Source: Pirellula staleyi DSM 6068
GTDB lineage: Bacteria > Planctomycetota > Planctomycetia > Pirellulales > Pirellulaceae
Direction: 5' to 3'
Assembly (NCBI GenBank): GCA_000025185.1
Contig: CP001848.1
Location: forward strand, 3,600,001-3,632,000
DNA: 32,000 nt
Made by a program: the position numbers and the translations under genes. The notes under the pieces are model-generated. The model saw nothing but the letters and a program-made list of their open reading frames with translations. It ran no database searches and was not told where the DNA came from. Shown here in pieces: positions 4,643 to 29,698 of the stretch (positions are counted from its first letter, which is position 1; each line of letters begins with the position of its first letter).

Positions 4643-6262
4643 TCACTCTTCAGCGGCACCACCAAGAGTGACCGAGATTTTGTACTTCGTTTGCAAATGG
4701 GCATGCGCTTGGCTGGCATGGCCATCCTTCGGGAATTTTTTGCAGACGAGCTGAAACGCCTGAATCGCTGGTTCGGTTTGCCCCGCTTCTTCGCGCGTGT
4801 AGGCGATTTGCAACATTGCCCACGGGGCCGAACCGGCATCGCTCGCCACTTGCGAGTAGAGCGTAATCGCCTCCGCCGGTTGCTTTAGCTGACGATAGCA
4901 CCACGCCATCTGCTTGTAGTTCTCGGGGAAATTATCGCACTGACGAAAATGGCCAATCGCCTGGGCATGTTGACCCGCATCGCGAAACGTACAGCCGACT
5001 TCCCAGCGCCACCGATTGGCGTTGGCGACATCGTCGCGCACGAGCTGCTCGTACGTTGCCACCGCTTCCATCCACTTGCCTAGCTGGCGATAGGTGATGG
5101 CTAGTTCCGGTTTCACCTTCACCCCTTGCATCGGATCGACACCAAGGGCCTGCTGATACGTGGTGATGGCCTGCTCTGGGTTCTGCTGTTCGCGATAGGA
5201 ATAGGCCACGTTCATCAGCCCATCCACCTGCGAAGCAAAACGCTTGTAGGTCGTTCGGGCGGTGTCCCAGTCGTCTTGCGATTTGTACCACTGCGCCAGT
5301 CGCCCGAGCGCTTCATCATCAGCGCCAAAACGTTTGATCAGCGCCTCGTAAGCCGCTGGAACTTCCGTCTTCTGCTGCGAAGCTGCCAGCAAATCGATGA
5401 CACTTTGCGCTAGTTGTTTTGCAGCTGCTTTTCCCTCGGGAGTGCTCTCGTCGATTGCTGCACTCGACTTCAGATAAGCAATCGCTTGCTGAGCCAGTTT
5501 GAGCCCCTTGGCCTTCGACTCATCCGCGCGCATCTGCTCGGCGATTGGCTCGCGCACATAGGCGGCGACTTGAAACGGCAGTCGCGCTGCTTCATACGTG
5601 GTGGCGAGCGCTTTGACCCCTTCATCAAACGCCGCTTCTCGAAATTGGTAAACCGCAAGCTGCTGCGATGCCTGAATGCACACGTTTTGCGAATCGCGAT
5701 TGCGGGGCGTGTCGAATGTCAGCTTCTTCCACCACTCGACGCGCGAAGGAATATCGTTCTCGATCGTCGTGATGTCGATCAGCTGCTCGATCGCTTGCAC
5801 CGCTACTTGATGGGCCGGGTGATCCTTCACGAGGGCACGCAATGTTTTTTTCGCTTCGGCGACCCGGCCGATTTCTTTATACGTGCGCCCCATGTAGAAC
5901 TTCGCCGCGATCGCTTGCTGCGACTCGGGCCAATAGTCGATCACACTTTGGAAACCTTCTTTGATCGCTGTGTTCTGCTTCCGAAGTTGAACTTGCGCAA
6001 GGCTCCAGCGCAGCTGCGCGTGCGGCGCGCCGACACTCTCTTCGTAGAGCGATAGAAACTTCTCGTACTCCGCTGCTGCGACTTTATAGTCCTGATCGCG
6101 ATAATATTTTTCAGCGATTTGCAGCTGGTAGCGCTCCACTTCGCGAAGCTGTTTCCAGCTTTCCAGCGGCAACTCATGCAGCGGTTCCGCTAGCACAGGG
6201 CGCGCAGCCATGCAGGCAAATGTGCCGAGAATAATGAGCGAAACGAGCGTTTTCGCGATCAT
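4643..6262 (-). CDS. secreted TPR-repeat protein (last gene of the ExbBD cluster)
   Basis: The track ORF is 4643..6343 (GTG). I prefer ATG 6262..6260, which forms an ATGA overlap with the stop of the upstream gene and yields a signal-peptide-like N-terminus, MIAKTLVSLIILGTFACMAARPVLAEP. Many TPR-like units are visible, e.g. AEKYYRDQDYKVAAAEYEKFL, FYMGRTYKEIGRVAEAKKTLRALVKDHP, AYSYREQQNPEQAITTYQQAL, AWCYRQLKQPAEAITLYSQV and IAYTREEAGQTEPAIQAFQLVCKKFP. Confidence 0.75.
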   Translation of the reverse strand: MIAKTLVSLIILGTFACMAARPVLAEPLHELPLESWKQLREVERYQLQIAEKYYRDQDYKVAAAEYEKFLSLYEESVGAPHAQLRWSLAQVQLRKQNTAIKEGFQSVIDYWPESQQAIAAKFYMGRTYKEIGRVAEAKKTLRALVKDHPAHQVAVQAIEQLIDITTIENDIPSRVEWWKKLTFDTPRNRDSQNVCIQASQQLAVYQFREAAFDEGVKALATTYEAARLPFQVAAYVREPIAEQMRADESKAKGLKLAQQAIAYLKSSAAIDESTPEGKAAAKQLAQSVIDLLAASQQKTEVPAAYEALIKRFGADDEALGRLAQWYKSQDDWDTARTTYKRFASQVDGLMNVAYSYREQQNPEQAITTYQQALGVDPMQGVKVKPELAITYRQLGKWMEAVATYEQLVRDDVANANRWRWEVGCTFRDAGQHAQAIGHFRQCDNFPENYKQMAWCYRQLKQPAEAITLYSQVASDAGSAPWAMLQIAYTREEAGQTEPAIQAFQLVCKKFPKDGHASQAHAHLQTKYKISVTLGGAAEE

Positions 6263-7731
6263 TTGGTCGACTGTTTGGCCGCGAGCCATTTCGCATACTC
6301 CGAATGCGCGTAGTTGATCACGTTCGCGCCAAGTTGATAGCACGAGTTGTAAATTTCAGGCGAGACCCCTGCATGTCCATCCGACCAGGCGTCGCCGATG
6401 TCTCCCGGATGATAGTACGCCAACCAGCGACCATCCATCGACCAGCCGAGCGCTTCTTTGCCACCGTGAGGAGCCACGTAGGGAAACGTTCCAATCTGAA
6501 ACGGAACGCGGTGCAGCGTATCATCGAGTGGGATCGGCACAGGCCGCACTTCGGGGAGGACTCGATTCATCATCGCGACCACCTGGTTGTGAAAGTGGCG
6601 GCTCCCACCATTGTCGATGAACAGCATCCCATGCTTATCGACGAGATACTCGCGCAGCACTTTGATGTCGGAGTTCGAGGTGTTGATACTCCCCTGACCA
6701 GTCATGTAGACCAGCGGCGGACTTTGATAGAGCGGAAAGCTCGACAGCTGCGCGATGCGGCGCGATTCGGTCCGGTCGGAGACCTTCTGGCTCGTCAGGA
6801 GTCCGTACTCAAAGAGCATGTTCATATCGCCACCGACACCAAAATCTTGGTCCCAGTCGCCGCCATCATACTCGAGCCGAATGAAGCGGACTTTCCCTTG
6901 CTTGGTTCCACCAGCGAAGCCTGCGCCGGTTCCTTCACCATAGCCAATCTTGTAGGCGTGTTCGGTCACCTCTTGCAGTTCGAGTTTCACCTCATCGATC
7001 GGTGGTACTTCAAACTTGATTGCTGAAAACGGATTCACCACAAACTTTTTGCGGATCACTTTTTGGATCCGCACTGTTTGGGCCACTGTCTTTTGCTCTC
7101 CACCACCGGCCGGCATTTCGTAGGTCTCTTTACAGCCACCCACCTGCGAAAGTGAGAGCGCGACGAGCCAAAACAGCATGCTGTAGCTCAGCAGCAGCAG
7201 CGTCGACTGCTTAAGCTTCTGGCTTTTGCGACCGTAGTACCACGCATCCGGATCGACTGGATTCCAAATGGTCGCGGGCTTCGCGGCCGGTTGTTCTCGC
7301 GGCTGATGCGACTTGCGAATGCGCAGCACTTCTCGCTGTCGCGATCGATTCTCGAGCCAATAGACTGCCCAGCCGAGCCCGATGAAAAACGCGCCGCCAT
7401 TGCCGAACTGCGACAAAAACGACGTGAGGCCATACAGCCCCAGCAGATCGCAAAGGTAGACCGCTGCCGTCCAAATCGGCAGGTAGCCGAGGGTCAGCGC
7501 GAGTGGCCAGATGAGCGCCGACTGAAAATTCTGCGACCGTAAAAATGCGATCCAGGCGATCGCCAGAGGAATCGCCAGGGCGAAGATCGCGCCGAGAATC
7601 CACGATTCACTCGCGCCGAAGAATATCCAGCTGATCACGCCGAGCAACCACGCCGCGCCAAAGCCGAGCGTTGCTCGTGTGAGCATCATCGGCCAAGGTG
7701 GTGGAGGTGATAGGAGTGACTGGAGGTTCAC
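6259..7731 (-). CDS. polytopic membrane protein with C-terminal DUF4159-like domain
   Basis: This is a 490-aa ORF (GTG 7731; alternative ATG 7689). The N-terminal about 200 aa contain about 5 hydrophobic helices. The C-terminal about 230 aa (VRFIRLEYDGGDWDQDFG...PLVYMTGQGSINTSNSDIKVLREYLVDKHGMLFIDNGG...PLDDTLHRVPF...GDIGDAWSDGHAG) follow the DUF4159 pattern as I recall it: R..Y.GG.W. ... P.lymtG.g.f.fs..E...LR.YL..GGfl..D. ... l..dHPif. Confidence 0.65.
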   Translation of the reverse strand: MNLQSLLSPPPPWPMMLTRATLGFGAAWLLGVISWIFFGASESWILGAIFALAIPLAIAWIAFLRSQNFQSALIWPLALTLGYLPIWTAAVYLCDLLGLYGLTSFLSQFGNGGAFFIGLGWAVYWLENRSRQREVLRIRKSHQPREQPAAKPATIWNPVDPDAWYYGRKSQKLKQSTLLLLSYSMLFWLVALSLSQVGGCKETYEMPAGGGEQKTVAQTVRIQKVIRKKFVVNPFSAIKFEVPPIDEVKLELQEVTEHAYKIGYGEGTGAGFAGGTKQGKVRFIRLEYDGGDWDQDFGVGGDMNMLFEYGLLTSQKVSDRTESRRIAQLSSFPLYQSPPLVYMTGQGSINTSNSDIKVLREYLVDKHGMLFIDNGGSRHFHNQVVAMMNRVLPEVRPVPIPLDDTLHRVPFQIGTFPYVAPHGGKEALGWSMDGRWLAYYHPGDIGDAWSDGHAGVSPEIYNSCYQLGANVINYAHSEYAKWLAAKQSTK

Positions 7732-7789
7732 GGGAATGACTTGCGAAGTGGTGGGAATCAGTGAGCCTAAGAATCAAAACGCAAAGGAA

Positions 7790-8326
7790 CTAATCGAGCC
7801 CATCGATCAGTTTGTCGAGACTTCCATCGAGCGGATTTTTGTCAGCCGGTGCTGCTTTCGATTCGTCGATGCCGAGCACTTTAGCGGCTGCTGCGGGATC
7901 CGCTTCATCCGAAGCTGTGCTCGCGGGCGTTCCCGTCGATGCGGCCGAGGCTGAAGTATTGCCAGCTGACGATTCGCCTGATGTTGTTTCTGCAGCCGGC
8001 GCTTCTGCTGTCGCAGCGGGGGGGCTGACTACCTCAGGTTTCTTCGGGTTATTGGGACCCCACACGAGATAGGGAACAATCGTAAAGAAAGCGATGATCG
8101 CGATCGTGGCAAGAATCGCTTGCACCATGCTTTTGATGAGCAGGCTAGACGAGACGATTCCGACCACTTCCTGCGGCGAGCGTCCTCGCAGCTTCGACAA
8201 AAATTCGCGCAGTTCCGCTGCCGACGCCGAGCCATTTTGGTGCAAGTTTTTCAGCTCGCTCCCAAATCCGCGTGGGGTCGGAGTTGTTTTAGGGGATGGT
8301 TCCATCTCTTTTTTCCTCATCCGCAT
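7790..8326 (-). CDS. hypothetical single-pass membrane protein with a Pro/Ala/Ser/Thr-rich tail (syntenic position of TonB/TolA)
   Basis: This is a 178-aa ORF. It has a basic N-terminus (MRMRKKEMEP...), one hydrophobic helix (MVQAILATIAIIAFFTIVPYLVW), then a low-complexity stretch PKKPEVVSPPAATAEAPAAETTSGESSAGNTSASAASTGTPASTASDEADPAAAA and a short acidic C-terminus. I recognise no family motif. Confidence 0.6.
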   Translation of the reverse strand: MRMRKKEMEPSPKTTPTPRGFGSELKNLHQNGSASAAELREFLSKLRGRSPQEVVGIVSSSLLIKSMVQAILATIAIIAFFTIVPYLVWGPNNPKKPEVVSPPAATAEAPAAETTSGESSAGNTSASAASTGTPASTASDEADPAAAAKVLGIDESKAAPADKNPLDGSLDKLIDGLD

Positions 8327-8355
8327 GGATGCTTGGGTACAGCTAATTGGGCTGC

Positions 8356-8757
8356 TTATTTTTTCTCTTCGAGCACGTGAACTAGTTCGCCACCCGCTTC
8401 ACTAATCGCTTCAATGGCCGGCTCGAAGTACATCGACTGGGCGTCGCGATCGACTTTCAGCAGCACGGTCCGTTCGCCAGCGGGGGCGTTGCCGAGCAAC
8501 TCTTCCAGCCGCGTCGCGAGTTGCGATTGCCCGATCTCTTGGCCATTGAGATGCATTTTGCTATCGGCATCAATCAGCACGCTCACCTTCGTCGCTCCGG
8601 CCCCTTGCACATTCGCCGCCGATGCCGGTTTCCACTTCAGGTGGCTATCATCCTGGGCTCGGGCGAGGATCACAAAAAAGATGAGCAGGTTGAACGCAAT
8701 GTCCCCCATCGCCGTGCTTGGCACATCCGCTTTCATCGGTTTGCGTGGGATCTTCAT
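8356..8757 (-). CDS. ExbD/TolR-family biopolymer transport protein (second copy)
   Basis: The ORF is 133 aa. The N-terminal TM helix carries the conserved Asp (MGDIAFNLLIFFVIL). The periplasmic part, ...KVSVLIDADSKMHLNGQEI...LATRLEELL...TVLLKVDRDAQSMYFEPAIEAISEAG, fits the ExbD/TolR fold pattern. Confidence 0.85.
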   Translation of the reverse strand: MKIPRKPMKADVPSTAMGDIAFNLLIFFVILARAQDDSHLKWKPASAANVQGAGATKVSVLIDADSKMHLNGQEIGQSQLATRLEELLGNAPAGERTVLLKVDRDAQSMYFEPAIEAISEAGGELVHVLEEKK

Positions 8758-8819
8758 AGCTCAATCGTTAGTTTGATAGTCTCGAGAGTAATGCTCAGCA
8801 TCCTGAGTGCTGACAATCG

Positions 8820-9272
8820 CTAATTTCCAACCGTAATGGTTCGCTCTTCTTCGCGCTGAATCGTAATCACACCACCTAAGTCTTGAACGATCGAGGTCGC
8901 CTCGATCCAGAGGTGGTAAGGGGTATCAGGACGGCTCTTCACCACCACCACCTTATCTTCCACACGTGTCTTCCCCTTGAAGGCTTGGGCCAAGGTTTTG
9001 GGGAGTTGCTCGATCGTTACAGGGCTTCCATTCACGGTGGCTGTTGTGCGGGTCAGGACTAGTTCGATGTTCTGTGTCTTCTGCTCTTGCTGCTGCGTCT
9101 GCTCGCTTCGTGGGAGGTCTTGTTTTCGACCGCTATCAGGCTGAGCCGACGCACAGACGAGAAAGAAGACGATCAGATTGAACGCGATATCGCCGGTCGC
9201 AACCGCAGCCGGTTCGACGAGTAGTTTGCCAGTGAGTCGTCGTTTCCGAGACATCGAGCGATGTTCTTCCAA
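8820..9272 (-). CDS. ExbD/TolR-family biopolymer transport protein (first copy)
   Basis: The ORF is 150 aa (alternative start at M7). The TM helix carries the conserved Asp (TGDIAFNLIVFFLVCA). A Gln-rich linker (SEQTQQQEQKTQ) follows, then ...IELVLTRTTATVNGSPVTIEQLPKTL...VVVVKSRPDTPYHLWIEATSIVQDLG. Confidence 0.85.
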   Translation of the reverse strand: MEEHRSMSRKRRLTGKLLVEPAAVATGDIAFNLIVFFLVCASAQPDSGRKQDLPRSEQTQQQEQKTQNIELVLTRTTATVNGSPVTIEQLPKTLAQAFKGKTRVEDKVVVVKSRPDTPYHLWIEATSIVQDLGGVITIQREEERTITVGN

Positions 9273-9290
9273 GCCCAGTGAGGAGGGGAG

Positions 9291-10274
9291 TTAGACGTGC
9301 GATTTCGCGGCAACTGGTGGCGGCGCTGTGTACGAGCTGCTTGTTTCACGCGAGCTGGTGGCTAGCTGAAACGTCACCGACTCGATCAGTTCGCTCGCCG
9401 ATTCTTCTACTTCCAGCACGAAGCGATTGGTGACGCTGGTGAAGTAGTTGAACGCCACGTAAGCCGGAATGCCGACAATCAGACCAAGCACCGTAGTAAG
9501 GAGCGAAACCATGATGCCCCCCGCAGCGGCCTCGACGATATTCTTCTCCCCCATATGCTTCACGATATCGTCGAACGATACCACCATCCCCTGGACGGTG
9601 CCGAGAAAGCCAACCATCGGTGCGGCGCTTGAAATCGTCGCCAAAATCGGAAGATGCTTCTCGAGCGCGGCGACGACATGCACCGAGTAGTCATCCATCC
9701 CTTTGACCACTTGCTCTTCGATTTTGGCGGCGTCGTAGCCGAGACGTCGCGCGACGAGGTACTTCTTCAGCCCCGCGCCGAGAATGGCTGGAACCGGCCC
9801 TTTGGTCTCTTCGCACTTCGCGAGCGCTTCTTCGATCTGATCTTTCTCGAGCAAAGAGCGGACTTCCGTCCGGAGCTCTTCCTGACGACTACCGAGCATC
9901 AATAGCGCCCGCGTTCGCTCGATAATCACCCCCAGGGCCACGATTCCCATGATCAGCAGGGGCCACATGAAAAGGCCGCCTTGCAGCATGTAGAACATCA
10001 CGCCGCTGTTGGCTAGGTCGCCAAGAAACTTGCTCAGTCCACTAGGCTCGGTGGAGGCTGGCGCTGCAGCCTCGGACTCAGCAGCCTCGGATTTCGCCGG
10101 AGCGGCTGGTGCCGATTCTGGTGCAGCCTCGGTCCCGCCAGAAAGTGTTGCTGGTGGCGGAGCATCCACCGGAACAGCTGGAGCGACAGCAGCTGGCGGC
10201 GCAGCTCCCCGCGATTCTTCGGCGAGAATGTCGTCGGCTTGACCAGCTAGTGCAAGGCAAAGAACGATCCACAT
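9291..10274 (-). CDS. MotA/TolQ/ExbB-family proton-channel protein with an Ala/Pro/Glu-rich N-terminal extension
   Basis: The ORF is 327 aa. The family core is visible: GGLFMWPLLIMGIVALGVIIER (TM1) and ...LATISSAAPMVGFLGTVQGM... and ...AGGIMVSLLTTVLGLIVGIPAYVAFNYF (TM2/TM3 signature). It lies directly upstream of two ExbD genes. An in-frame TAG lies 12 nt upstream of the ATG, so the start is fixed at 10274. Confidence 0.85.
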   Translation of the reverse strand: MWIVLCLALAGQADDILAEESRGAAPPAAVAPAVPVDAPPPATLSGGTEAAPESAPAAPAKSEAAESEAAAPASTEPSGLSKFLGDLANSGVMFYMLQGGLFMWPLLIMGIVALGVIIERTRALLMLGSRQEELRTEVRSLLEKDQIEEALAKCEETKGPVPAILGAGLKKYLVARRLGYDAAKIEEQVVKGMDDYSVHVVAALEKHLPILATISSAAPMVGFLGTVQGMVVSFDDIVKHMGEKNIVEAAAGGIMVSLLTTVLGLIVGIPAYVAFNYFTSVTNRFVLEVEESASELIESVTFQLATSSRETSSSYTAPPPVAAKSHV

Positions 10275-10349
10275 GCTTGTGGTTTCCTAACAAATGCGAG
10301 CGTACGGTTCCGAGTGATGGCGGGGCTTTTTTGCCTCGCTGCATATCTA

Positions 10350-13300: not shown

Positions 13301-16300
13301 GAACTTCATCCTCGGTGAGATCGGCGCGAGCAATGGTGGCTTCGACAGCCGACTGTCCTTGATTGGAAGCGGCGAAAATGGCAATGTCGTGTAGGCCACT
13401 CTTGAGCCACAAATCGACCGCGCGTCCACCAGGACCCACGGCCAACTCTTCGACTCCGTTCACTACCACAGCTGTCTTGGTTCCGCTCACATGGATGCGG
13501 AGAGCACCGGTGCGTGGCTGAGCGAGTTTACCCTGCCAAATCACGCCGAATGACTTAGAGCTATCGTCGCTCCCTTCAGCCCGGACATAGCGGAGCGTAG
13601 GAACTTTTTGCGAAGCAATCGATCGAGCATTTTTCGAGAGATCGGCGACTTGTTGCCAGGTGGTGTAGTCGTGCGAGTTTCCTCCGTACACCGTTTCGGT
13701 CATTTCGGCATAAGGCTGCGCGAGTGTGGCTGCGAGTGGACGCTGTGGATAAGTCGCCAGTCGGAACCAGAATTCGCCATCCTGACTGCCGTAGAGATCG
13801 CCGCGTACTGGATAGTTACGCATTTCGCTGGGCGATGTGAAGCGGACACGTGAGGTGGCGTAAACATCCTTCATGTCGACGGTGAGAAGTTTCGGAGCCA
13901 CTCCATCGGGCTCGCTCATCCAGAACGATTTCGGATCGCGATCGATCGCCATTAGCGGGCTGTGATCGATAGAGGTGTCGGTCGCTAGGGCACCGGCGGG
14001 AAGCTCGCCCGTTTTGGCAGTCCCTTCAAAAATTCCCGAGTGGGCAGCTGTTTCAATCAACTTCACTTGCACTTGGTCGCCACTGTCGGCGGTCAGCTTG
14101 ATCGTGATCGAATCGGGATCGTTGGTGAGATCGCGATCGGGGTCTTTGACACGGAGATGCACCAAATTGCCGGGCTTGATTTGATCGGCGGGGCGAATTT
14201 GCGAACGTCGATTGTCTTGCTGATCTTCCGACAATTCCTGCTCGAGTGTTTGGCTGAAGGTCGACTGGGCGGCATCGACAATCGGACTGCTGGCGACCTC
14301 AAAACGAGCATCGGCAGCGACTCGAATCTCGACATCGGAGAGGGGGACGTTGCGGAACTCGGCCTTAAACTCTTCAGGATAGTCGCAGCGGATAGTGTCG
14401 TTACCGGTGAGCTGCAACACACCATCGCCGGTCGATGCTTGACCGAGTCGCGTGTCGATGTCGGCGCGGAACAGACCTTTGCCAGCTCCTGCGCCGGTGA
14501 GATAGACCGTTTCGCTGTCACCACCGGGAAGAGTAGTGACCCGAACAGGAATTCGATTATGGCCGCGGCTGATTCCGAGATCGCTATCGTGCACCACGAT
14601 CGAAAGCGGCAAGCCGGGGACGTGACGTCGCTTGCTGGCGCGTCCCAGCCGACCGACCGTACGGAGCAAGTTCAGCTGATCGATATATTTTTCTTCAGCG
14701 CCGTAGACTTCGGCGAGATTGAACAGGGCTTGATTGGCCAGTTCGACGTTCGGAACGCGTTCGAGAACCGCGCGGAAAATATCGCGTGCTTCGTCGCGGT
14801 CGCCACGTCGAAACGCCAGGACACCCCGCAAGAACTCGGCCCGAACGACTACGTCGACTTCGGTGCTGCGGGCTAGTTTTTCGAACACAAGCTCGGCCTG
14901 ATCGTAGACCTTTTGCGACATGAAGGTTTCGCCGATACCAAACTCGGCTTCGGTCGCTTGCGGTGTTCCGGGATAGCGGTTCACCACCGTGGTGAACTCG
15001 CTGCGGGCGATATCAAACCGCTGACCTTTGAAGAAGTTTTTGGCGAGCAGCAGCTGCATTTGGGCCTTCACGGCGTCTTCCACTTGCATCGACTCGCTCC
15101 ACTTCACGAGCCAGCCGCGGAGCACTTCTTCAACGTAGTCTTGATTGGTTTCGCCACCCGCTGCAATGAGTCGGTCGCACACAAACACGAGCAGATCGGC
15201 GGGAAGTTCGTTGCGGTTCTCATCGAAGAGTTGTTTGTTGGCGAGGTAGGTATCGAACGCCAGTCGTTCGTCGCCGAGACGGAAGTAGAGGGCCGATTGC
15301 AAGAGTGGCGCGATGGGGCTGGAATCGTCGATGGTGAGTCCCACGCCGCCGAGACGCGCGAGGGACTGCGTGGTGATGTCGCGAACTGCCTTTTTACGTG
15401 GCTCGTCGACATTGGGAATGTTAGCCAGCATGCCAGTCGAAAGCGTGAGGGCGGTGACGAAGTCCTTGCGAACCACGGCAGCCTGCGCAAACGGTGCGAG
15501 GCGATCCCAGTCGTACCATTCATTGCCAACAATTCGCGTCAGCCGCTGCAACTGAAGTTGGCGTGCCATGCGTGCGCCCGGAGCAATCGGGGTTTCTTCG
15601 AGGATCGCCAGGGCAGCGCTGGCCGAAGCAGGATGCACATCGAGATCGCGGATCGCGGCCAAGATTTGTGTTTTCTGGGGCGGGGTGAGTTTGTCGCTCG
15701 CGCGGGTCTGATCGATGATGGTCGAGAATTGCCACATGTCGTAGTCTGCGCCACGCAGAGGCTGTTTCCGCTGACGCTCGATGCTTGTTTTGAGGGTTTG
15801 AGCAAAACCATTTACATCGCCCGCAGCGAGCTGGTCGGCTGCAATTATTTGCGCAAATCGGCCATGAAACTCTGTCTCTTTGGCAAGCAATTTTTGGAGC
15901 AACTGCGAGCGCTGATCTCCCATCGATCGCTCGAGAATGCGAGCCGACGATTCGCGGAATTCATAGCCGCTGCCTGTCTCCATGTTGGTGGTCCACCATG
16001 CAATCGCTTCCGCCTCGAGTTTGCATTTGAAGAGCATGTCGCCAATCGACGTGGCACTATTCATGTCGCGATAAAAACGTTTTTCAGCATCGAGAATGTA
16101 GGCGAGCGATCGACGCGCGAGATCGGTATCGAGGTTGTTCTTTTCAGCAGCAGTAAGGAGCCGACGCCAGTGATCGCCGTACGCAGTTTGAGCAGGAAGC
16201 TTGAGGAAATGTTCCGCTGCCGCTTTCATCTCCTCGGGCTTGCCGTGATCGGTCGTGGTCTCGAGGTAGTAGGCGGCCCCTTGGTGATCGGTCGGGAACT

Positions 16301-18059
16301 TCTCGCACCAGAGCTTCGCCACAGGAATTTGCTCTGCGCGTTTGTTGCCGGGGGCATGGTGCCGATAGAAGTCGAGCTGCGTCCAGAGGATTGAGCGCTG
16401 CGCACCTTCGGGAAGATTGTTGAAAATGCCTGGTTCGAGCAGCTTTTTGCGAATCGGTTCACCAGCAGCATGCTGCGAGCCGCGCTGCTCGATCCACATG
16501 GCGACCAGTTGATCCGACGTCACTTTTTTGAGTTCGTCGGCGGCCAAATCACCACGTGGCTTAAGTTCTTTGTTCTGCCGCGCGGAGTTGCTCCAGTTTT
16601 TCAGAACATCGCGCAGGCTTGCGAGATGGGGATGCTTACGAAGCGAATTTCCAACGAGCGCCAGATCGCTCTTAAATTCGTTATCGTCGGTGGCGCTCGA
16701 GAGGAGCCAGTCGATGGCATTGTGCGTGTGACCATCGTCGGTCGGTGAATTGGCAATCAGTTCACGCAGCACACGTTTAGCTGAGGCAATGTCCTTGAGG
16801 CGATCGCGATAGAGTTCAAGCGCCAGTACGTAGCGGAGGTAGTAAGCCTGCGGCTTGTTCTGGCCAATCGCAGCCTGAATCTTCTGCGCGGCGACGTTCC
16901 ACTGCGCAGCTTCGGTGCCGATTTCGCGAACGTAGACAGCCGCGTTGCTGTTGGTCGTCGGATCGTCGGCCAGCACTTGCTCGAAGAGCGAGATAGCGCG
17001 ACCACGGTCGCCAGCAGCAAGGTACGAGTGCGCAAGATAGCCCACCGTTTGGAATCGATCCACGCGATCGGCGTACTTTGCTGCATACTCATTGACGAGT
17101 GGTTCGAGCTCTCCCGGCTTAGCGCCGGCGTAATGCAATCGCTGAATCAGCTGGAAGTGCAGGAGCTGGCTATCCTTGATCGCGCGGGCTTGCTTCAGGC
17201 TATCGGCGGCATTGGCATGCTGGCTCAAATTGCCGTGATTTTCAGCCATTTTGATGTGGAAATCGCGAAGCGAATCGCCATTGCCACCGAGCCCCTTAGC
17301 GAGGATTTTTTGACCCATCGCGGCACTTTTGGCCCAGGCACCGATACGGCGATAGGCGTCGAACGACTGCATCCCGATATCGCGAGCAAAAGGGCCCGCT
17401 GGAAACTTGTCGAACATCGCTTCGGCTTGTTGGGCAGCGAGGTCAATCGACTCGCCGTTGCCAATCCAGAGCCAAAGATTCATCGCCTGCAGGCCATACT
17501 TAATTCCCGTTTCATTGGTTCCTTGACGGGTCCATACTGCCTGCGCTGCTTCGGCAGCTCGCTCGCGATCTTCCATCTGAGCCAGCGCGTCGGCTAGCCG
17601 AACTTCCACGGCTGCTGCCTGAGGACTGCTGGGATAGCGCGCGATGAATTGTCGACAAGCGGCAGAGAGATCTTTGTTGCGCGAAAGTGCTTCCAGACCA
17701 TCGATCAACTTGAGCATCACCTCTTGGTGGCGCGCATCGCCCGGGTGTGCCGATGCAAATTGTTGGCCTACACGGACCAGTCCAAACAATCGCGCGTCTT
17801 GATGGTAGAGATTGACGAGCTCCACCATGGCATTGGCCGCTTCAGGCGAACTGTCCTTATGCTTGCCAAGTTCCGCTTCGAGCAGCGATGCCTTTTGGCT
17901 CACCTCATCTTGCACGGGGGCCGGTTTAGTCGGCGCTGCTTGTCCCCACAGCGATGGAGCGCCACCCATGAGCGTGAGCAGCATCATTACGGGGGCCGCA
18001 GCACGGCACAACACAGTTCGAGTTATCGAAAACGTTGCAGTTGACATCGGAGTTGTCAC
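10350..18059 (-). CDS. giant (2569 aa) secreted TPR protein with a central beta-rich region carrying repeated modules and lectin-like domains
   Basis: This is a single uninterrupted ORF with a signal-like N-terminus (...AAAPVMMLLTLMGGAPSLWGQAAP). There are about 1100 aa of helical TPR-like repeats (approx nt 14650-17900). The central beta-rich region spans approx 11250-14610. The C-terminal YbgF/BamD-type TPRs cover approx 10350-11020 (YPDPKYAPRVAYLLGQFAQELSQWDEAIRSYDMILRQFPDHTLAPDAQYKLAQCYEEAGDFDQALEAYVTLAATHPKSPL...). Subdomains are described in the findings. Confidence 0.85.
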   Translation of the reverse strand: MTTPMSTATFSITRTVLCRAAAPVMMLLTLMGGAPSLWGQAAPTKPAPVQDEVSQKASLLEAELGKHKDSSPEAANAMVELVNLYHQDARLFGLVRVGQQFASAHPGDARHQEVMLKLIDGLEALSRNKDLSAACRQFIARYPSSPQAAAVEVRLADALAQMEDRERAAEAAQAVWTRQGTNETGIKYGLQAMNLWLWIGNGESIDLAAQQAEAMFDKFPAGPFARDIGMQSFDAYRRIGAWAKSAAMGQKILAKGLGGNGDSLRDFHIKMAENHGNLSQHANAADSLKQARAIKDSQLLHFQLIQRLHYAGAKPGELEPLVNEYAAKYADRVDRFQTVGYLAHSYLAAGDRGRAISLFEQVLADDPTTNSNAAVYVREIGTEAAQWNVAAQKIQAAIGQNKPQAYYLRYVLALELYRDRLKDIASAKRVLRELIANSPTDDGHTHNAIDWLLSSATDDNEFKSDLALVGNSLRKHPHLASLRDVLKNWSNSARQNKELKPRGDLAADELKKVTSDQLVAMWIEQRGSQHAAGEPIRKKLLEPGIFNNLPEGAQRSILWTQLDFYRHHAPGNKRAEQIPVAKLWCEKFPTDHQGAAYYLETTTDHGKPEEMKAAAEHFLKLPAQTAYGDHWRRLLTAAEKNNLDTDLARRSLAYILDAEKRFYRDMNSATSIGDMLFKCKLEAEAIAWWTTNMETGSGYEFRESSARILERSMGDQRSQLLQKLLAKETEFHGRFAQIIAADQLAAGDVNGFAQTLKTSIERQRKQPLRGADYDMWQFSTIIDQTRASDKLTPPQKTQILAAIRDLDVHPASASAALAILEETPIAPGARMARQLQLQRLTRIVGNEWYDWDRLAPFAQAAVVRKDFVTALTLSTGMLANIPNVDEPRKKAVRDITTQSLARLGGVGLTIDDSSPIAPLLQSALYFRLGDERLAFDTYLANKQLFDENRNELPADLLVFVCDRLIAAGGETNQDYVEEVLRGWLVKWSESMQVEDAVKAQMQLLLAKNFFKGQRFDIARSEFTTVVNRYPGTPQATEAEFGIGETFMSQKVYDQAELVFEKLARSTEVDVVVRAEFLRGVLAFRRGDRDEARDIFRAVLERVPNVELANQALFNLAEVYGAEEKYIDQLNLLRTVGRLGRASKRRHVPGLPLSIVVHDSDLGISRGHNRIPVRVTTLPGGDSETVYLTGAGAGKGLFRADIDTRLGQASTGDGVLQLTGNDTIRCDYPEEFKAEFRNVPLSDVEIRVAADARFEVASSPIVDAAQSTFSQTLEQELSEDQQDNRRSQIRPADQIKPGNLVHLRVKDPDRDLTNDPDSITIKLTADSGDQVQVKLIETAAHSGIFEGTAKTGELPAGALATDTSIDHSPLMAIDRDPKSFWMSEPDGVAPKLLTVDMKDVYATSRVRFTSPSEMRNYPVRGDLYGSQDGEFWFRLATYPQRPLAATLAQPYAEMTETVYGGNSHDYTTWQQVADLSKNARSIASQKVPTLRYVRAEGSDDSSKSFGVIWQGKLAQPRTGALRIHVSGTKTAVVVNGVEELAVGPGGRAVDLWLKSGLHDIAIFAASNQGQSAVEATIARADLTEDEVRLRAFRAADFDSSSIVATAGEKQVAPPAAIPLLASTAKFEKKTEQFGVKGEGDKAIINYWQSLDDKASWDIELPAAGLYEVLLNYAHQGAGGRFRVTVGNVSLECSVPDTGNWETFRTDRVGTLLIEAAGAQTLTITPLEIQNGGLMDLRGVALRPSKSGVVVQGPQWDFHFPETELRYVRLTTNEYRGEAVAFSNVEVFSLEPGKLYIPTQEDVLGLAENDTLEIAAGDTITATYTDEVTLNELGGSQLLTGKLQATYYNANVTAISYDFEKNAGGNVQTIRKELRRIDPGERIIFEVVDYDEDASGERDTVKFEVLVNDGAPLELVATETENNTGTFTKEIDTSLTAETGKIVVKPGDRVYLRYVDQHNTFPGHSVPRETVIDVVRPTPGIVRVLNTRVIPPPEGSKAAPQVTVIPSTENQAIAGMAFEAPLTIEVIDPDAAKDSRSSVPVIVTTTDGAQVEVMCTVSSAFAPAGAAGDDDWALDEGRFVGQVILQLGGKSSPAVVPLTTDMPRNLVGRVKVGEEGAAEERAGANLVTKVLNLTGKDIATALYVDARRPDGSSQDLSAQGRLISNGQLAVTDRDYAKPITQLHVGERIYLRVIDPDLDSSDARDVAVVEVTSQLGEKESVRLEETLAHSGIFTGSLQLKANDKPTPANLDSAEPVVETYFGDVLTIAYLDSAASTESGTLPLSVEIPVVVGTDGLIAAFSKTFSDETLAVETRFRIAESYFELFKSHKTLERDDEKKTDLEAGRRILREVMEDYPDPKYAPRVAYLLGQFAQELSQWDEAIRSYDMILRQFPDHTLAPDAQYKLAQCYEEAGDFDQALEAYVTLAATHPKSPLIPNVMIRISDYFYKAEKFDIAAQVGEKFLERFEGHQHAPRLAFRVGQCYYKSKQYATAGKSFDQFSKLFPDDALGADALFWSGESFRLGGNLREAFIRYNNCRWKYAESEAAKYARGRLALPEMLQQFEAEANSVDED
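11250..11513 (-). repeat. beta-module copy G5
   Basis: GERIYLRVIDPDLDSSDARDVAVVEVTSQLGEKESVRLEETLAHSGIFTGSLQLK...FGDVLTIAYLDSA. Confidence 0.55.
12195..12428 (-). repeat. beta-module copy G3
   Basis: GERIIFEVVDYDEDASGERDTVKFEVLVNDGAPLELVATETENNTGTFTKEIDT...KPGDRVYLRYVDQ. Confidence 0.55.
14004..14171 (-). repeat. beta-module copy G2
   Basis: GNLVHLRVKDPDRDLTNDPDSITIKLTADSGDQVQVKLIETAAHSGIFEGTAKTGE. Confidence 0.55.
14367..14606 (-). repeat. beta-module copy G1 (protein-level repeat in the giant protein)
   Basis: LSIVVHDSDLGISRGHNRIPVRVTTLPGGDSETVYLTGAGAGKGLFRADI...GVLQLTGNDTIRCDYPEEF. It follows the same pattern as the other copies: acidic D.D loop, a strand pair, a G.F motif, then a terminal ..I...Y.D/E strand. 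Confidence 0.45.
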
Positions 18060-18115
18060 CTAGCAGTCGCAGGAAAGAACAGGCATAAAACCAGCGGAAA
18101 ACAAGCAGAAAACGA

Positions 18116-20485
18116 TTAGAAGCCCGACTTCACGAGGGCGTCGGAAATCTTCTTCGCGTCGGCTGCAAGCGGGCTCTCGGGGAACTCGCTGATGAGTTGG
18201 TCGAAACGTTGTCGAGCTTCGGCCTTGCGCTCCATGCGATAGAGGCAGCGGCCGTAGTTGAACAAAATGACGTCGAGAAATTTGGCGTCAGGTTGGCTTG
18301 CGAGCACAGTTTCAAACGTGTCGACCGCGCGAGCGTAATCTTTTTGGATGTAGTAGTAGTTGGCCATCTTGGCGACCGCTTCACCAACGCGACCACTATC
18401 GGGAAACTCGTCGTACACTTTTTTGTACTCTTGAAACGCGCGATCTTGCAGCTGAGCTGCCGCGGCAGGTTCGGCCTTCGCCGACATGTCGTCGTAGCAC
18501 AAAGCCACGCCAAACTGAGCCTCCCCGCGAAGGGTGCTCGTTTGCATCGACACGAGCCGCGAGAAGATGCCGATCGCTCGTTGCAGTTCCCCTTGAGTCC
18601 GGGCGACTTCGGCCAGTTGCAGCAGCGCATCATCGACGAATCCACTCTCAGGGAACTCGGTTTGCAGACGCTGACACATCGCGGCTGCCAGGTCGAGCTT
18701 GTCCATCGCGAAGTAGATGTTCCACAGCTGCACGTAGGTCTGTTCCAGCAGACTTCCACCCAGTTTGCGAGCGTCGATGGCAATCTCGTCGCACATCGTG
18801 AGTGCCTGGTTGTACTTCTCGGTCGCTTTATCCTTGAGGCCGAATTCCTTGTAGCGATTCCCAATTTGCGTAAGGGCGTCGGCTGTCTTCAGCTGCGTTT
18901 GAATCTTCAGCTCTTGATCGGAGATTTCAGTCTTGGTGACACGTACACCACCGATGCTCCCCTCGAGACAAGCAGCTTCGGCCTGTACCTGACGAATTCC
19001 ATCGCGGCTGTGCGATTCGTCGAGATAGGTGATCCGGACAATATCTTGCGGCGCTGCTTCGAGGGTGTCATTCCCGGCAACGACTTGCTCGGCCTTCAGT
19101 AGCGGCACTGAGCCATGAAAGAGCCCGCTATGGATGGCACTATCTGTTTTCTGATCGACCGTCGGCTGTGCGGGAGCTGCAGGATCGGTGGACGAACTGA
19201 CCGTGGGTCGCTCACTCACCACCACAGCGGGAATCACTTCGTTTAAGGTGATTTCGAGCGAATCGATCAGTTTCAGTTTCGGTACTTCGAGCGCTGCGGC
19301 ATCTTCGGGAAGATCGTCGGCTGGTTTCTCAGCTGGAACCGCTGGCTGAGTTTGGGCGAGTTTGACGAGTTCTTCTTCGATCTCGACTTCCGTTTTTCGG
19401 CGATAGACTTCGACGAGCACTTTCAGCGTGTCGGACTGCGGCGAGGTATCGCGGTCGGCATCGCTCAGGCGAATGTTGACGCTCTTCCCGAGAACAACAC
19501 CGTTGACAGTTTCGGCGTAAGCACCGTCGGTAATCGCGGCATTGGCAGTTCCAACCACCAGCACATCCTTCAGGACGGGCACTTTCAGTTTTTTGTCGGC
19601 TGTATGTTCGTCGACATAAGTGACGTTCACACGATCACCGCCACGAACTTCCAGCGTGCCGTTGCCAGGAACCGGGGAACCGAGCCGCGATCCGATGGAA
19701 CCGAGCACGAGCCGGACATTTCGACCAACAGGAAAACAGTCGGCTGTTTCTTCGTCGCCACTCGTCGTTTTGCAGAGCACCTTGATCGGCTGATCGGGTT
19801 CGAGGACAGCCAGATCGGCATCTTCGATTTTCAAGAAGAGTCGCTTACCCGCTTCAAGTTTCTCCCCGGCTTCGGTATCGCTCGAGAGAGTCGTTCCGAC
19901 TTTCTCGAGAGCGGAGATGGCTCGGCTGTAGTGTCCGAGTTGAAAGTGACCGAGCCCAATGTAGTAGTACGCTTCGTTCACCTGGGGGCTGACCGGATAG
20001 TCTTCGATCACATCGCGCATGATCTGAAAGCATTTGCCATAGTTGCGAGCATGGTAGTAGCAGATGCCGAGTTTCAGGGTTGCTTCCGCGCGCTGCGCTT
20101 CATCGCGGTTCTCTTCGGCGGCCACCGATTCGAAATAGGGACGGGCTCGATCGTAGGCTCGTTCGCGATCGAGGTAGAAGTTCCCCAGTCGCAGCGAAGC
20201 TTCAAAACGATGCTTGCTGCGCGGATAACGCTCGATCACCGATTTCCAAATCTCGACCGCCTTGTCGGTTTCCTCGGCATCGAGTCGCGCGTCGCCAGCT
20301 TCGAGCAACTTACGAGCAGCCCGGTCTTCCACGAGCGAGCCCCGCGCGGGGGAGCCAGCTTCCGCTTCTTCAGCGGGCTCTTGCGCCGCGAGATGCGCTG
20401 GCGAGAGCGGAAAAGCTATGCAGAGCAGAGCAGAGGCGAGCGCGAAGAGCAGCGTACGAATTCCGAAGTTCATCGGGCGCGACAT
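18116..20485 (-). CDS. secreted TPR protein (789 aa), a smaller paralogue-like version of the giant protein architecture
   Basis: It has a signal peptide (MSRPMNFGIRTLLFALASALLCIAFPLSPAHLAAQEP). The N-terminal TPRs are YbgF-type (RYPRSKHRFEASLRLGNFYL..., DYPVSPQVNEAYYYIGLGHFQLGHYSRAISALEKV). Two central beta-modules follow, then C-terminal TPRs (EFPESGFVDDALLQLAEVARTQGELQRAIGIFSRLV; EFPDSGRVGEAVAKMANYYYIQKDYARAVDTFETVL; EFPESPLAADAKKISDAL). Confidence 0.8.
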   Translation of the reverse strand: MSRPMNFGIRTLLFALASALLCIAFPLSPAHLAAQEPAEEAEAGSPARGSLVEDRAARKLLEAGDARLDAEETDKAVEIWKSVIERYPRSKHRFEASLRLGNFYLDRERAYDRARPYFESVAAEENRDEAQRAEATLKLGICYYHARNYGKCFQIMRDVIEDYPVSPQVNEAYYYIGLGHFQLGHYSRAISALEKVGTTLSSDTEAGEKLEAGKRLFLKIEDADLAVLEPDQPIKVLCKTTSGDEETADCFPVGRNVRLVLGSIGSRLGSPVPGNGTLEVRGGDRVNVTYVDEHTADKKLKVPVLKDVLVVGTANAAITDGAYAETVNGVVLGKSVNIRLSDADRDTSPQSDTLKVLVEVYRRKTEVEIEEELVKLAQTQPAVPAEKPADDLPEDAAALEVPKLKLIDSLEITLNEVIPAVVVSERPTVSSSTDPAAPAQPTVDQKTDSAIHSGLFHGSVPLLKAEQVVAGNDTLEAAPQDIVRITYLDESHSRDGIRQVQAEAACLEGSIGGVRVTKTEISDQELKIQTQLKTADALTQIGNRYKEFGLKDKATEKYNQALTMCDEIAIDARKLGGSLLEQTYVQLWNIYFAMDKLDLAAAMCQRLQTEFPESGFVDDALLQLAEVARTQGELQRAIGIFSRLVSMQTSTLRGEAQFGVALCYDDMSAKAEPAAAAQLQDRAFQEYKKVYDEFPDSGRVGEAVAKMANYYYIQKDYARAVDTFETVLASQPDAKFLDVILFNYGRCLYRMERKAEARQRFDQLISEFPESPLAADAKKISDALVKSGF
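19010..19489 (-). repeat. beta-module copy S2 (in the 789-aa protein, with a long insert)
   Basis: GKSVNIRLSDADRDTSPQSDTLKVLVEVYRRK...(about 90-aa Pro/Ala/Glu-rich insert)...SAIHSGLFHGSVPL...DIVRITYLDESH. Confidence 0.5.
19604..19849 (-). repeat. beta-module copy S1 (in the 789-aa protein)
   Basis: GKRLFLKIEDADLAVLEPDQPIKVLCKTTSGDEETADCFPVGRN...LEVRGGDRVNVTYVDEH. Confidence 0.45.
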
Positions 20486-24692: not shown

Positions 24693-25208
24693 TTACCGTC
24701 GTTTTTTACGGACGATTCCGAGGGCGTCCTCGATGTCCTTACGGAGCAGGGCGGTTTCGTATTGCTCTTCGACCTTGATACGCAGCAGGGGAAGGCCAGC
24801 TGCGGCGAGGGCCGCGTTCACAAATCGATCCCGTTCTTGCCGATCGGGGCGTCGATGCGAACTGTCGTCAAGTTCAATCGCCAGTTTGACTTCCAGCGTG
24901 TCGTTGTCGCAAATCACAAAGTCGATATGTTTGCCCGCGATGCGGTTTTGCCAGGTTTGAAACTTGCGTGTTTTGGCGCGCACCTTAATCAGATCGGCCA
25001 GCCGGACCATGGAGAATATTTGCCAGTCGTCGCGCACCGCTATTTGCAGCGTGCGGAGGAAATTGATCTCGGCTGGCGTGAGCAGAACGCCGCGCCGCTC
25101 GTAAGGCATCGGACCATCGCGCAGCGACGCCATGGCAATAATGAGGAGGACCGCCGCCACCAATAGAAACAGCAGCAGCGGCCAATTATCGATTAGCAGC
25201 TGACCCAT
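24693..25208 (-). CDS. membrane-anchored DUF2726 domain protein (restriction-endonuclease-like fold)
   Basis: The ORF is 171 aa. The N-terminal helix is WPLLLFLLVAAVLLIIAMASL. The rest reads LLTPAEINFLRTLQIAV...QIFSMVRLADLI...AGKHIDFVICDNDTLEVKLAIELDDSSH...RDRFVNAALAAAGLPLLRI. This is the DUF2726 pattern, with the D...(E/D).D/K-like core HIDFVICD...IELDD. Confidence 0.65.
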   Translation of the reverse strand: MGQLLIDNWPLLLFLLVAAVLLIIAMASLRDGPMPYERRGVLLTPAEINFLRTLQIAVRDDWQIFSMVRLADLIKVRAKTRKFQTWQNRIAGKHIDFVICDNDTLEVKLAIELDDSSHRRPDRQERDRFVNAALAAAGLPLLRIKVEEQYETALLRKDIEDALGIVRKKRR

Positions 25209-25376
25209 GGCGTGACCGGTTTCTCGTCGGCAAGCGACGAACGAGGCTCATTGGCGGGGGAGAGGCCGGTGAGAGATGTCTATCGAGTCGCTGGTTGTAC
25301 CATCGCTCGAGAAGCATCCGCTTCCATCATCGGAGCCCGGTGGGTGATGCTTGAGTGATTTGCAGTGCGCAAAGTC

Positions 25377-25405
25377 TTGACGTAAATAATCTTGCGATAG
25401 TTATT
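25377..25405 (+). promoter_or_regulatory. weak sigma70-like promoter candidate for the HD-GYP unit
   Basis: TTGACG(25377-25382) is followed by an unusually AT-rich patch, taaataatcttgcgatagttatt. Possible -10 elements are tagtta (15-nt spacer) or gttatt (17-nt spacer), and neither is a good match. Planctomycete promoter rules are poorly known. Confidence 0.2.
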
Positions 25406-27371: not shown

Positions 27372-27421
27372 GATACTAGAGCCTTCAGTTGCTCCCTCTC
27401 TAGTCACCACTGTGTCACTCT

Positions 27422-29625: not shown

Positions 29626-29698
<73 letters not shown>

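Follow-up and report, generated by a model that had tools for sequence, protein, structure and literature searches.

A candidate planctomycete envelope machine in Pirellula staleyi that joins a Tol/Exb-type stator to DUF4159 and tetratricopeptide repeat proteins

On what does a proton-driven motor act when its genes are accompanied by neither TonB nor TolA? This question is raised by a gene cluster of Pirellula staleyi DSM 6068, located in a stretch of 32,000 nucleotides (assembly GCA_000025185.1, contig CP001848.1, positions 3,600,001 to 3,632,000) that is referred to here as the window. In this cluster an ExbB subunit and two ExbD subunits, ExbD1 and ExbD2, are encoded among three tetratricopeptide repeat (TPR) proteins, named TPR789, GIANT and TPR566, together with a small protein in the TonB/TolA position, orf178, and a membrane protein of the family DUF4159. 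Planctomycetes possess a Gram-negative envelope, and many of them do without FtsZ. The cluster probably encodes a cell-envelope machine in which a proton-driven motor of the TolQ/ExbB type is paired with proteins that resemble neither TonB nor TolA. With modest confidence, it can be specified further as a planctomycete envelope machine built on a Tol/Exb-type stator, in which orf178 and the DUF4159 protein serve as transducers to TPR/beta-sandwich proteins, and whose task is envelope housekeeping. Such a cluster stands as a single, highly conserved candidate for coupling inner-membrane energy to the outer envelope in planctomycetes, for which an absence of Pal and of Tol-Pal loci has been reported.

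The evidence that carries this proposal begins with the conservation of the arrangement. Through a scan of one genome per species, 271 matching stretches were obtained, of which 80 loci were kept; these include Pirellulaceae, Planctomycetaceae, Schlesneria, Planctomicrobium, Fuerstiella, Rhodopirellula, Rubripirellula and Anatilimnocola sp. NA78 (complete genome). By using the window proteins in tblastn searches, the order GIANT-ExbB-ExbD1-ExbD2-orf178-DUF4159-TPR566 was found on one strand almost everywhere. When each gene was counted only in loci with enough flank around the DUF4159 gene, the C-terminus of GIANT stood directly upstream of ExbB in 46 of 47 loci and TPR566 directly downstream of DUF4159 in 70 of 71, with ExbD1 (60/60), ExbD2 (64/64), orf178 (66/68) and ExbB (50/55) in place between them. 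This synteny is held at only 50-60% protein identity across planctomycete orders, and such an arrangement is, as judged from sequence comparison, far beyond chance. That the block might not be conserved as a unit had been set beforehand as a possible refutation of the preliminary description of this DNA; the counts, which run from 46/47 to 70/71 for most genes (50/55 for ExbB), give a block that holds together. The exceptions are splits rather than losses. In L042/L047, for example, the TPR789-GIANT module is found just downstream of TPR566, and in the Gemmataceae locus L092 the module of small protein, DUF4159 and TPR566 is divergent from TPR789-GIANT, with a TPR789 orthologue, 55% identical over its full length, upstream of GIANT. 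With TPR789 as seed, 17 loci were retrieved from metagenomes; 13 of them had enough upstream sequence, and in 15 of the 17 TPR789 was followed by GIANT.

The genes of a stator are all present, and the catalytic residues are kept. All coordinates of window genes given here are positions within the 32,000-nucleotide stretch, and the whole cluster lies on the minus strand. The ExbB/TolQ-like stator subunit (9291-10274, 327 aa) matches the Pfam family MotA_ExbB (PF01618, E = 1.3e-22), and it has a signal-like segment at its N-terminus and an Ala/Pro/Glu-rich extension. In NCBIfam its best match is tolQ (TIGR02796) with 101.5 bits against a cut-off of 221, and the exbB equivalog TIGR02797 gives 70 bits against a cut-off of 206, while a PDB sequence search identified E. 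coli TolQ (8odt, E = 6e-14) as the closest solved relative. Through alignment to 8odt, it was found that the equivalents of E. coli TolQ T145 and T178, the threonines of transmembrane (TM) helices TM2 and TM3, are retained in the motifs FLGTVQG and LLTTVLG, which bears out the TM2/TM3 signature reported in the preliminary description. The TM aspartate that had been reported for both ExbD copies (GDIAFNL) was likewise found in both sequences. ExbD1, which is TolR-like (8820-9272, 150 aa), and ExbD2 (8356-8757, 133 aa) match PF02472 with E values of 1.3e-14 and 2.2e-14, respectively, and the TM Asp of ExbD2 aligns with that of Serratia ExbD (chain 7ajq_F). Both copies miss the ExbD equivalog cut-offs of NCBIfam (21-22 bits against 153-216), and the tolR model TIGR02801 reaches 23.3 bits against a cut-off of 127.3. 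The two ExbD proteins cross-match at only ~27-31%, each constituting a separate conserved orthologue group, and the median identity of ExbD2 across loci is 66%.

The position that TonB or TolA would occupy is held by orf178 (7790-8326, 178 aa), for which no Pfam or NCBIfam match was obtained, Pfam having been tried up to E <= 10. This protein had been described as an orphan, a label which no longer applies, as orthologues are found at 66 of 68 loci. It is a single-pass, N-in membrane protein. In the alignment of the 66 orthologues, a conserved cytoplasmic motif, ELREFLxxLxGRSPQEVxG, abuts the TM helix, which terminates in TVxPY; a variable linker rich in Pro, Ala, Ser and Thr comes after the helix, and the protein has a conserved C-terminal peptide of 30 residues (AMGIDETKxADPxxNPLDxxLDKLLDG). 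On the sequence, this layout of N-in anchor and flexible spacer is TonB/TolA-like, with the globular C-domain apparently reduced to a peptide.

The gene that follows (6259-7689, with an alternative GTG start at 7731) encodes the DUF4159 membrane protein of ~476 aa, whose C-terminal 200 residues match PF13709 with E = 3e-34 and 118.7 bits against a gathering threshold of 25.9. More than 1000 full-length homologues were found, with 52-81% identity, and those that are named all belong to the Planctomycetota. In the AlphaFold2 (AF2) model of the protein, with a mean confidence (pLDDT) of 82.7, the N-terminus forms a bundle of four membrane helices, followed by a positively charged cytoplasmic loop, a fifth helix, TM5 (residues 157-181), and an alpha/beta domain (residues 260-476). 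Residues 197-256 have a pLDDT below 50, although they are among the best-conserved parts of the alignment, and they make up most of a conserved unstructured segment (~186-260). A Foldseek search with the DUF4159 domain retrieved 4I66 (Hoch_4089, a structural-genomics DUF4159 protein; E = 2e-7, target TM-score 0.80) and, next after it, class-I glutamine amidotransferase domains. On the model, the C-domain is predicted to have a glutamine-amidotransferase-like fold and to be neither TonB_C/TolA nor von Willebrand factor A (vWA). By positive-inside topology, the domain is predicted to be periplasmic.

Family alignments show that L159, Q161, S162 and Y169 of TM5 are invariant. Near-invariance also holds for F173 and for a GGC where the helix ends on the periplasmic side. 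Conservation of this kind appears unlike that of a generic anchor, and the conserved disordered segment after TM5 would fit a fold-upon-binding element. When residues 130-265, which comprise TM5 and this segment, were used in a HMMER search against 1.84 billion cluster representatives, only 117 clusters were retrieved, and in all 10 of the sampled clusters that were scanned the module was found with the DUF4159 C-domain. Two of these ten, P0220 and P0225, are extended far at the N-terminus, and the extensions contain TM2 domains as well. In a third, P0202 (1001 aa), the DUF4159 protein is joined to TPR566-like TPR repeats. P0202 could be a genuine fusion, or it could reflect a frameshift at the ATGA overlap of the two genes, which is described below.

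The best available evidence on the origin of these two membrane anchors comes from distant cassettes (L085, L087 and L089), which consist of a giant TPR protein with PA14, ExbB, ExbD, ExbD, a small protein, DUF4159 and a TPR-like protein, and whose DUF4159 proteins are only ~30-36% identical. In these deep-branching cassettes (63-72% GC), S/A-x3-H is present in the TM helix of both the small protein (L085 2497-3015; L087 9523-9951; L089 9655-9990) and the DUF4159 protein (L085 3054-4637; L087 10001-12001; L089 10001-11794). S/A-x3-H is the core of the SHLS motif of TonB and TolA, and in the window's clade its His is replaced. Since both deep-branching proteins share it, the small protein and TM5 of DUF4159 may descend from, or converge on, TonB-like motor-docking anchors. 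Two further features of the cassettes can be recorded here: the giant TPR gene is separated from ExbB by the gene of a 166-167-aa protein without family (L087 7242-7742; L085 475-978), and in L087 the cluster is followed by another DUF4159 protein, a short one of 303 aa, and by a PA14-domain protein (14017-16362).

The other constituents of the cluster are TPR789 (18116-20485, 789 aa), GIANT (10350-18059, 2569 aa) and TPR566 (4643-6262, with a longer ORF from 6343; 539 aa counted from the ATG at 6262). They had been described as three secreted TPR proteins whose terminal repeats are YbgF/BamD-like, and the scans agree with this: in all three proteins, TPR_6/TPR_16/YfiO-type repeats are abundant (Pfam), the YbgF/CpoB TPR model is found (NCBIfam) and an N-terminal signal-type hydrophobic segment is present. 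For TIGR02795, with a cut-off of 90.1, GIANT scores 142.7 bits and TPR789 112.8 bits, each summed over several repeats, and TolA_bind_tri gave no match in the TPR proteins (539-2569 aa). TPR789 is composed of an N-terminal TPR, a central beta region with DxD...SGxFxG motifs and a C-terminal YbgF/BamD-like TPR; TPR566 has an N-terminal YbgF-like module. GIANT comprises a signal peptide, ~1130 aa of TPR-like helices, ~1150 aa of beta-sandwich structure, with discoidin/CBM6-like modules among its domains, and a C-terminal YbgF/BamD-like TPR, and its beta region repeats (V/I)xDxDxD...SGxFxG motifs, which are common to TPR789.

The AF2 model of GIANT residues 1150-2300 is all-beta (pLDDT 82.8), and Foldseek related this region to arrays of immunoglobulin (Ig)/macroglobulin (MG) type (Nitrosopumilus S-layer, PorU, alpha2-macroglobulin/complement) as well as to jelly rolls of the carbohydrate-binding module (CBM) or galactose-oxidase type. 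The claim that GIANT is carbohydrate-binding-like was borne out in part. Glycan-binding-like beta modules do occur in its family, as many homologues list PF00754/PF22633 (F5/8-C) among their precomputed Pfam families and distant ones bear PA14; in the window protein itself, however, the corresponding Pfam matches are sub-threshold (F5_F8_type_C 26.9 bits against 28.2; CBM_6 20.6 bits; CBM6/35 ~20 bits). A lectin-like GIANT is plausible. Homologues were also found in Verrucomicrobia (L081 2-3514; L082 10001-15034). The verrucomicrobial protein upstream of such a homologue was considered as a relative of TPR789, and comparison revealed no relationship.

Could the cluster nevertheless be a Ton or Tol-Pal locus of known type? 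The preliminary description had held that it is not, and that no TonB C-terminal domain, TolA, TolB, Pal or TonB-dependent receptor is present; both statements were upheld. TonB_C (PF03544/PF13103) and TolA gave no match in orf178 or in the DUF4159 protein even at E <= 10, the motor genes remain below the exbB and tolQ equivalog cut-offs, and in the scanned genes of the 32-kb window no TonB_C, TolA, TolB (PF07676/PF04052), Pal/OmpA-like or TonB-dependent receptor domains were found. In the related loci, no TonB-dependent receptor was found in the Pfam gene lists, the remaining loci having been checked only for homologues of the window genes. The cluster is like the Ton system in having an ExbB of the MotA/TolQ/ExbB family with its threonines and an ExbD with a protonatable TM Asp, but it differs in that no TonB_C is found anywhere in it. 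The Xanthomonas Ton system, tonB-exbB-exbD1-exbD2, combines one ExbB with two ExbD paralogues, and it is the paired ExbD genes that the cluster shares with it. The Vibrio TonB2 system (TtpB-TtpC-ExbB-ExbD-TonB2-TtpD) is alike in its ExbB/ExbD core and in a TPR accessory at the end of the operon (TtpD2; PMC6957404). In contrast to these TonB systems with extra components, the cluster has no Fur-type iron context that could be seen and no receptor genes nearby.

With Tol-Pal, the cluster shares an ExbB that is nearest to TolQ, both in NCBIfam and in the PDB sequence search, and CpoB/YbgF-type TPR_6 modules in all three TPR proteins. It differs in having no TolA domain III, no TolB beta-propeller and no Pal OmpA-like domain, in missing the tolQ and tolR cut-offs, and in possessing two TolR-like genes, whereas Tol-Pal has one. 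Its TPR proteins have 3-15 times the size of CpoB, and no match to the trimerisation domain of the latter was found in them. The presence of the cluster as one conserved copy suggests, as for Tol-Pal, a housekeeping role in the envelope. In Planctomycetes, no pal was found according to the supplement of Williams-Jones et al. (PMC12204202).

The closest architectural analogue is Agl-Glt, by which Myxococcus xanthus glides, and the closest published concept is that of the vWA force transducers. The comparison with Agl-Glt had already been drawn and is apt, as one TolQ-like and two distinct TolR-like stator genes are present in both (PMC11761067), and in both the motor, AglR5-AglQ-AglS in Agl-Glt, is joined by two membrane-anchored downstream proteins and by large periplasmic TPR proteins. 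In Agl-Glt, a pentamer of AglR encloses AglQ and AglS, and GltG and GltJ are single-pass transducers with disordered segments, whose C-domains have been modelled docking on the TPR pillar GltD/GltE (PMC11761067). However, GltG and GltJ have TonB-C-like domains and FHA/GYF cytoplasmic domains, which the cluster proteins do not have. Genes for the Glt outer-membrane barrels, the CglB adhesin or the cytoplasmic platform are likewise not in the cluster, and the GltE model NF033758 gives 22.6 bits against a cut-off of 225.

Clusters of the order TPR-tolQ-2x tolR-vWA transducer were described in PVC bacteria by Williams-Jones and others, who reported them in Planctomycetes, Verrucomicrobia and other phyla and suggested gliding for them (Williams-Jones et al., Mol Biol Evol 2025; PMC12204202). 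In the Tichowtungia example, this front end is followed by two membrane-anchored proteins that combine a TM helix and a disordered region with a globular C-domain not of the TonB type (PMC12204202). The cluster of P. staleyi has the same front end, a TPR gene followed by one tolQ-like and two heterologous tolR-like genes, and the gene order matches. It departs from the vWA systems in several respects: its C-domain is DUF4159, glutamine-amidotransferase-like and without a vWA Pfam match; its first downstream protein, orf178, is without any globular C-domain; four additional TM helices stand at the N-terminus of its DUF4159 protein; in the window's clade the SHLS-type His is absent, S/A-x3-H occurring only in deep-branching relatives; and its TPR component is a 2569-aa giant with beta-sandwich modules, accompanied by two further flanking TPR genes. 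The term DUF4159 does not appear in the full text or supplementary files of that study (PMC12204202), and a literature search for it gave only the Pfam database paper; the planctomycete literature on ExbB, TolQ and TonB, including a 2025 review and Boedeker 2017, contained nothing on this cluster. Set beside the literature, the cluster is a variant within an emerging class of non-TonB motor-coupled envelope systems and does not open a category of its own.

How the parts would couple physically, in which direction force would flow and what role the machine would play can be inferred as follows. ExbB would form a pentamer around an ExbD1-ExbD2 heterodimer, giving a 5:2 stator in which each ExbD carries a proton-binding Asp, and ExbB5-ExbD1/ExbD2 would turn proton flow into movement. 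The part of TonB or TolA would fall to orf178 and the DUF4159 protein, which would dock on this stator, the DUF4159 protein through TM5, which is oriented N-in/C-out as in TonB, and would pass the work of the stator to TPR789, GIANT and TPR566. A machine driven by proton-motive force with the TPR/lectin-like scaffold as its output, as put forward in the preliminary description, is plausible. The C-terminal peptide of orf178 and the conserved unstructured segment of the DUF4159 protein may bind TPR grooves and/or the ExbD periplasmic domains, much as GltG and GltJ have been modelled to do on GltD in Agl-Glt. The TPR/beta-sandwich proteins, in turn, would be linked with peptidoglycan, with the outer membrane or with glycans at the surface. 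The most likely job of such a machine would be envelope housekeeping, in which outer membrane, peptidoglycan and inner membrane are coupled in a manner analogous to Tol-Pal. This role is favoured because of the housekeeping-like conservation, the TolQ-like ExbB and the CpoB-like TPR modules.

A bolder and only tentative extension is that DUF4159 represents a class of TonB/TolA-like force transducer of its own, the third beside the TonB/TolA C-domains and the recently proposed vWA domains. The ten-gene cluster (PSCyt2/PSD1, DUF1501, TPR789, GIANT, ExbB, ExbD1, ExbD2, orf178, DUF4159 and TPR566) would then be the trans-envelope energy-coupling machine of planctomycetes, either as a replacement of Tol-Pal in FtsZ-less, Pal-less budding bacteria or as the energiser of macromolecule capture. 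The transducer role of DUF4159 is suggested by its periplasmic topology, the conserved TM5, the S/A-x3-H of the deep branches, the disordered conserved segment and the DUF4159-TPR fusion. If true, it would furnish the first functional context for three widespread families, DUF4159, DUF1501 and DUF1549/1553, and would extend beyond TonB and TolA the idea that 5:2 proton motors drive many periplasmic transducers. Planctopirus or Gemmata would permit these proposals to be tested genetically.

Several observations weigh against the proposed envelope machine. No outer-membrane component is encoded in the cluster, and the verrucomicrobial GIANT homologues (~45% identity over part of the beta/TPR region) do not adjoin ExbB/ExbD or DUF4159 genes. 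A minority of genomes have a split between ExbB and ExbD1 (L042/L047; L044/L052/L067), and L093 has one after ExbD2. In the window's clade, the TonB-type His is missing from the helix of orf178, which has K/Q there, and from DUF4159 TM5, where Tyr169 stands instead. At the periplasmic end of TM5, Cys186 is near-invariant (51 of 72 family members) and belongs to a lipobox-like [LIVM]-x-G-C; the codons of G184-G185-C186, at window positions 7132-7140, are preceded by a basic stretch, which resembles an internal lipoprotein signal after four TM helices. TM5 could be a lipoprotein-type signal of this kind instead of a motor-docking helix, and the DUF4159 domain, rich in invariant His/Asp (HFHNQ, PLDDxxHR, PHGG, YYHPGD), could be an enzyme instead of a grappling domain. 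In that case the DUF4159 protein would act not as a force transducer but as a periplasmic enzyme or binding protein with a lipid anchor, and coupling to the motor would be left to orf178 alone, if to anything. This is regarded as unlikely. The position of the Cys after a basic stretch, a hydrophobic helix and a small residue agrees with it, as do the many invariant His/Asp, which in a glutamine-amidotransferase-like domain suggest a catalytic or metal site, and the existence of stand-alone DUF4159 proteins such as 4I66 (200 aa) and the second, 303-aa copy in L087; but four TM helices ahead of TM5 are atypical of lipoprotein precursors, the conservation of TM5 (Q161, S162, Y169, F173) exceeds what a signal peptide needs, S-x3-H is found in TM5 of deep branches, and the Cys is wholly absent from some family members. 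Distinctly unlikely, too, is an ordinary Ton energiser, in which ExbB-ExbD-ExbD would serve a canonical TonB and receptors encoded elsewhere, while the TPR proteins, orf178 and DUF4159 would be accessories like TtpB/TtpD or mere neighbours. One-ExbB/two-ExbD operons do exist in bona fide Ton systems, for example in Xanthomonas. A TPR protein, TtpD2, is moreover an essential accessory of Vibrio TonB2 (PMC6957404). Yet the TonB position is held by a protein without TonB_C in 66 of 68 loci, ExbB is closer to TolQ than to ExbB, no receptor or TonB was found within 10 kb in ~100 loci inspected by window-gene homology or Pfam listing, and synteny with the DUF4159 and TPR genes has been kept over very long divergence.

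The motor might instead, as the preliminary description had speculated, energise the capture of polysaccharides or other macromolecules and their import over the outer membrane, with GIANT as binding scaffold and DUF1501, which is sulfatase-like, processing the cargo. The glycan-binding-like beta modules of GIANT (F5/8-C, CBM6/35-like), the PF00754/PF22633 of many homologues, the PA14 in place in distant cassettes and the conserved neighbourhood of a Tat-exported DUF1501 protein with its PSCyt2/PSD1 partner all point in this direction, and the uptake mechanism of planctomycetes is stated to be unknown in reviews (PMC12673574). Uptake is nevertheless rather unlikely: among the conserved genes of the cluster there is none for an outer-membrane channel, a receptor, a glycoside hydrolase or an inner-membrane sugar transporter, the lectin-like matches of the window GIANT lie under the Pfam thresholds, lectin-like modules could equally bind peptidoglycan or lipopolysaccharide, and a single copy with high conservation across orders is more like a housekeeping machine than a substrate-specific locus. 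A machine for surface motility, adhesion or secretion of the Agl-Glt/GldLM kind, whose motor would move or export GIANT at the cell surface, has been weighed as well. Its subunit logic would be that of AglRQS with two transducers and TPR pillars (PMC11761067), and gliding has been suggested for the related vWA systems (PMC12204202). The beta region of GIANT also resembles S-layer and PorU-like Ig arrays. Against this stand the lack in the cluster of GltA/B/H/K-like barrels, a CglB-like adhesin, a cytoplasmic platform or components of a type IX secretion system, and the GltE score of 22.6 bits, far from its cut-off of 225. Gliding is not known from these planctomycetes, and a machine of this kind is considered very improbable. 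A Zorya-like or MotAB-like anti-phage defence function was also considered and was rejected, since the seven cluster proteins other than GIANT gave no PADLOC match (E <= 1e-3).

As regards the layout of the genes, the spacers of 56, 75, 18, 62, 29 and 58 nt between the eight co-directional ORFs were recomputed from the coordinates and all agree with those first listed. The ATGA overlap was reproduced in the same way, the DUF4159 stop codon TGA (6261-6259) sharing bases with the ATG at 6262. This ATG is likely the true start of TPR566, and the protein translated from it has a typical signal peptide, MIAKTLVSLIILGTFACMA, at its N-terminus. For the DUF4159 gene, a start near 7689/7686 is more probable than one at the GTG at 7731, because its homologues have 475-500 aa. 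Scans for promoters and terminators gave counts not above those of shuffled sequence and are uninformative on operon structure.

Upstream of TPR789, two genes extend the conserved neighbourhood. The DUF1501 protein (20912-22171, minus strand, 419 aa) matches PF07394 with E = 7e-104 and carries an N-terminal twin-arginine signal (MTRRALMAAGG), and the PSCyt2/PSD1 (DUF1549/DUF1553) protein (22249-24420, minus strand, 723 aa) matches PF07583 and PF07587. Both families, DUF1549/DUF1553 and DUF1501, are hugely expanded in planctomycetes. In 13 of the 13 metagenomic loci with enough upstream sequence, PSCyt2/PSD1, DUF1501, TPR789 and GIANT were found on one strand; DUF1501, 65-80% identical in all 13, is the best-conserved gene of the neighbourhood, and the PSCyt2/PSD1 orthologues are 45-67% identical. 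The pair is also found in L084 and L042/L047, is displaced in L093, where it comes after ExbD2, and is not upstream in L083, so that the association is wide and not universal. The bounds first given to the cluster, 4643-20485, therefore do enclose the eight genes but stop short of the conserved block, which reaches upstream to 24420, both genes of the pair lying outside them. The gap between DUF1501 and TPR789 measures 426 nt in the window and ~180-700 nt among loci, and its sequence was unconserved in an alignment of 9 loci. Because this gap is variable and unconserved, DUF1501 is probably in a transcription unit separate from TPR789; for want of conservation across the 9 loci, a shared regulatory element in the gap is not proposed.

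Families that are hallmarks of planctomycetes flank the cluster: DUF1501 and PSCyt2/PSD1 are encoded upstream of it, and a Na/sulfate symporter is encoded downstream (Pfam). Among the loci compared, L093 (GCA_026931725.1), labelled Bacteroidales, and L069, labelled Candidatus Kuenenia, bear planctomycete hallmark genes or DUF4159 orthologues of 64% identity; the taxonomic labels of these two contigs from metagenome-assembled genomes are probably binning errors. Farther upstream in the window, the region 24693-29477 is unrelated to the cluster and encodes a DUF2726/restriction-endonuclease-like protein (24693-25208, minus strand), an HD/HD_5-domain protein (25665-27371, plus strand), a 165-aa protein without family (27422-27919, plus strand) and a caspase-domain (Peptidase_C14) protein (28011-29477, plus strand). 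An Rfam scan of the window revealed one tRNA and nothing besides, a tRNA-Met (CAT) gene at 29626-29698 on the plus strand (70 bits), which was also identified by ARAGORN. This gene overlaps the mechanical start of a glyoxalase-family ORF (29668-30195), whose true start therefore lies further downstream.

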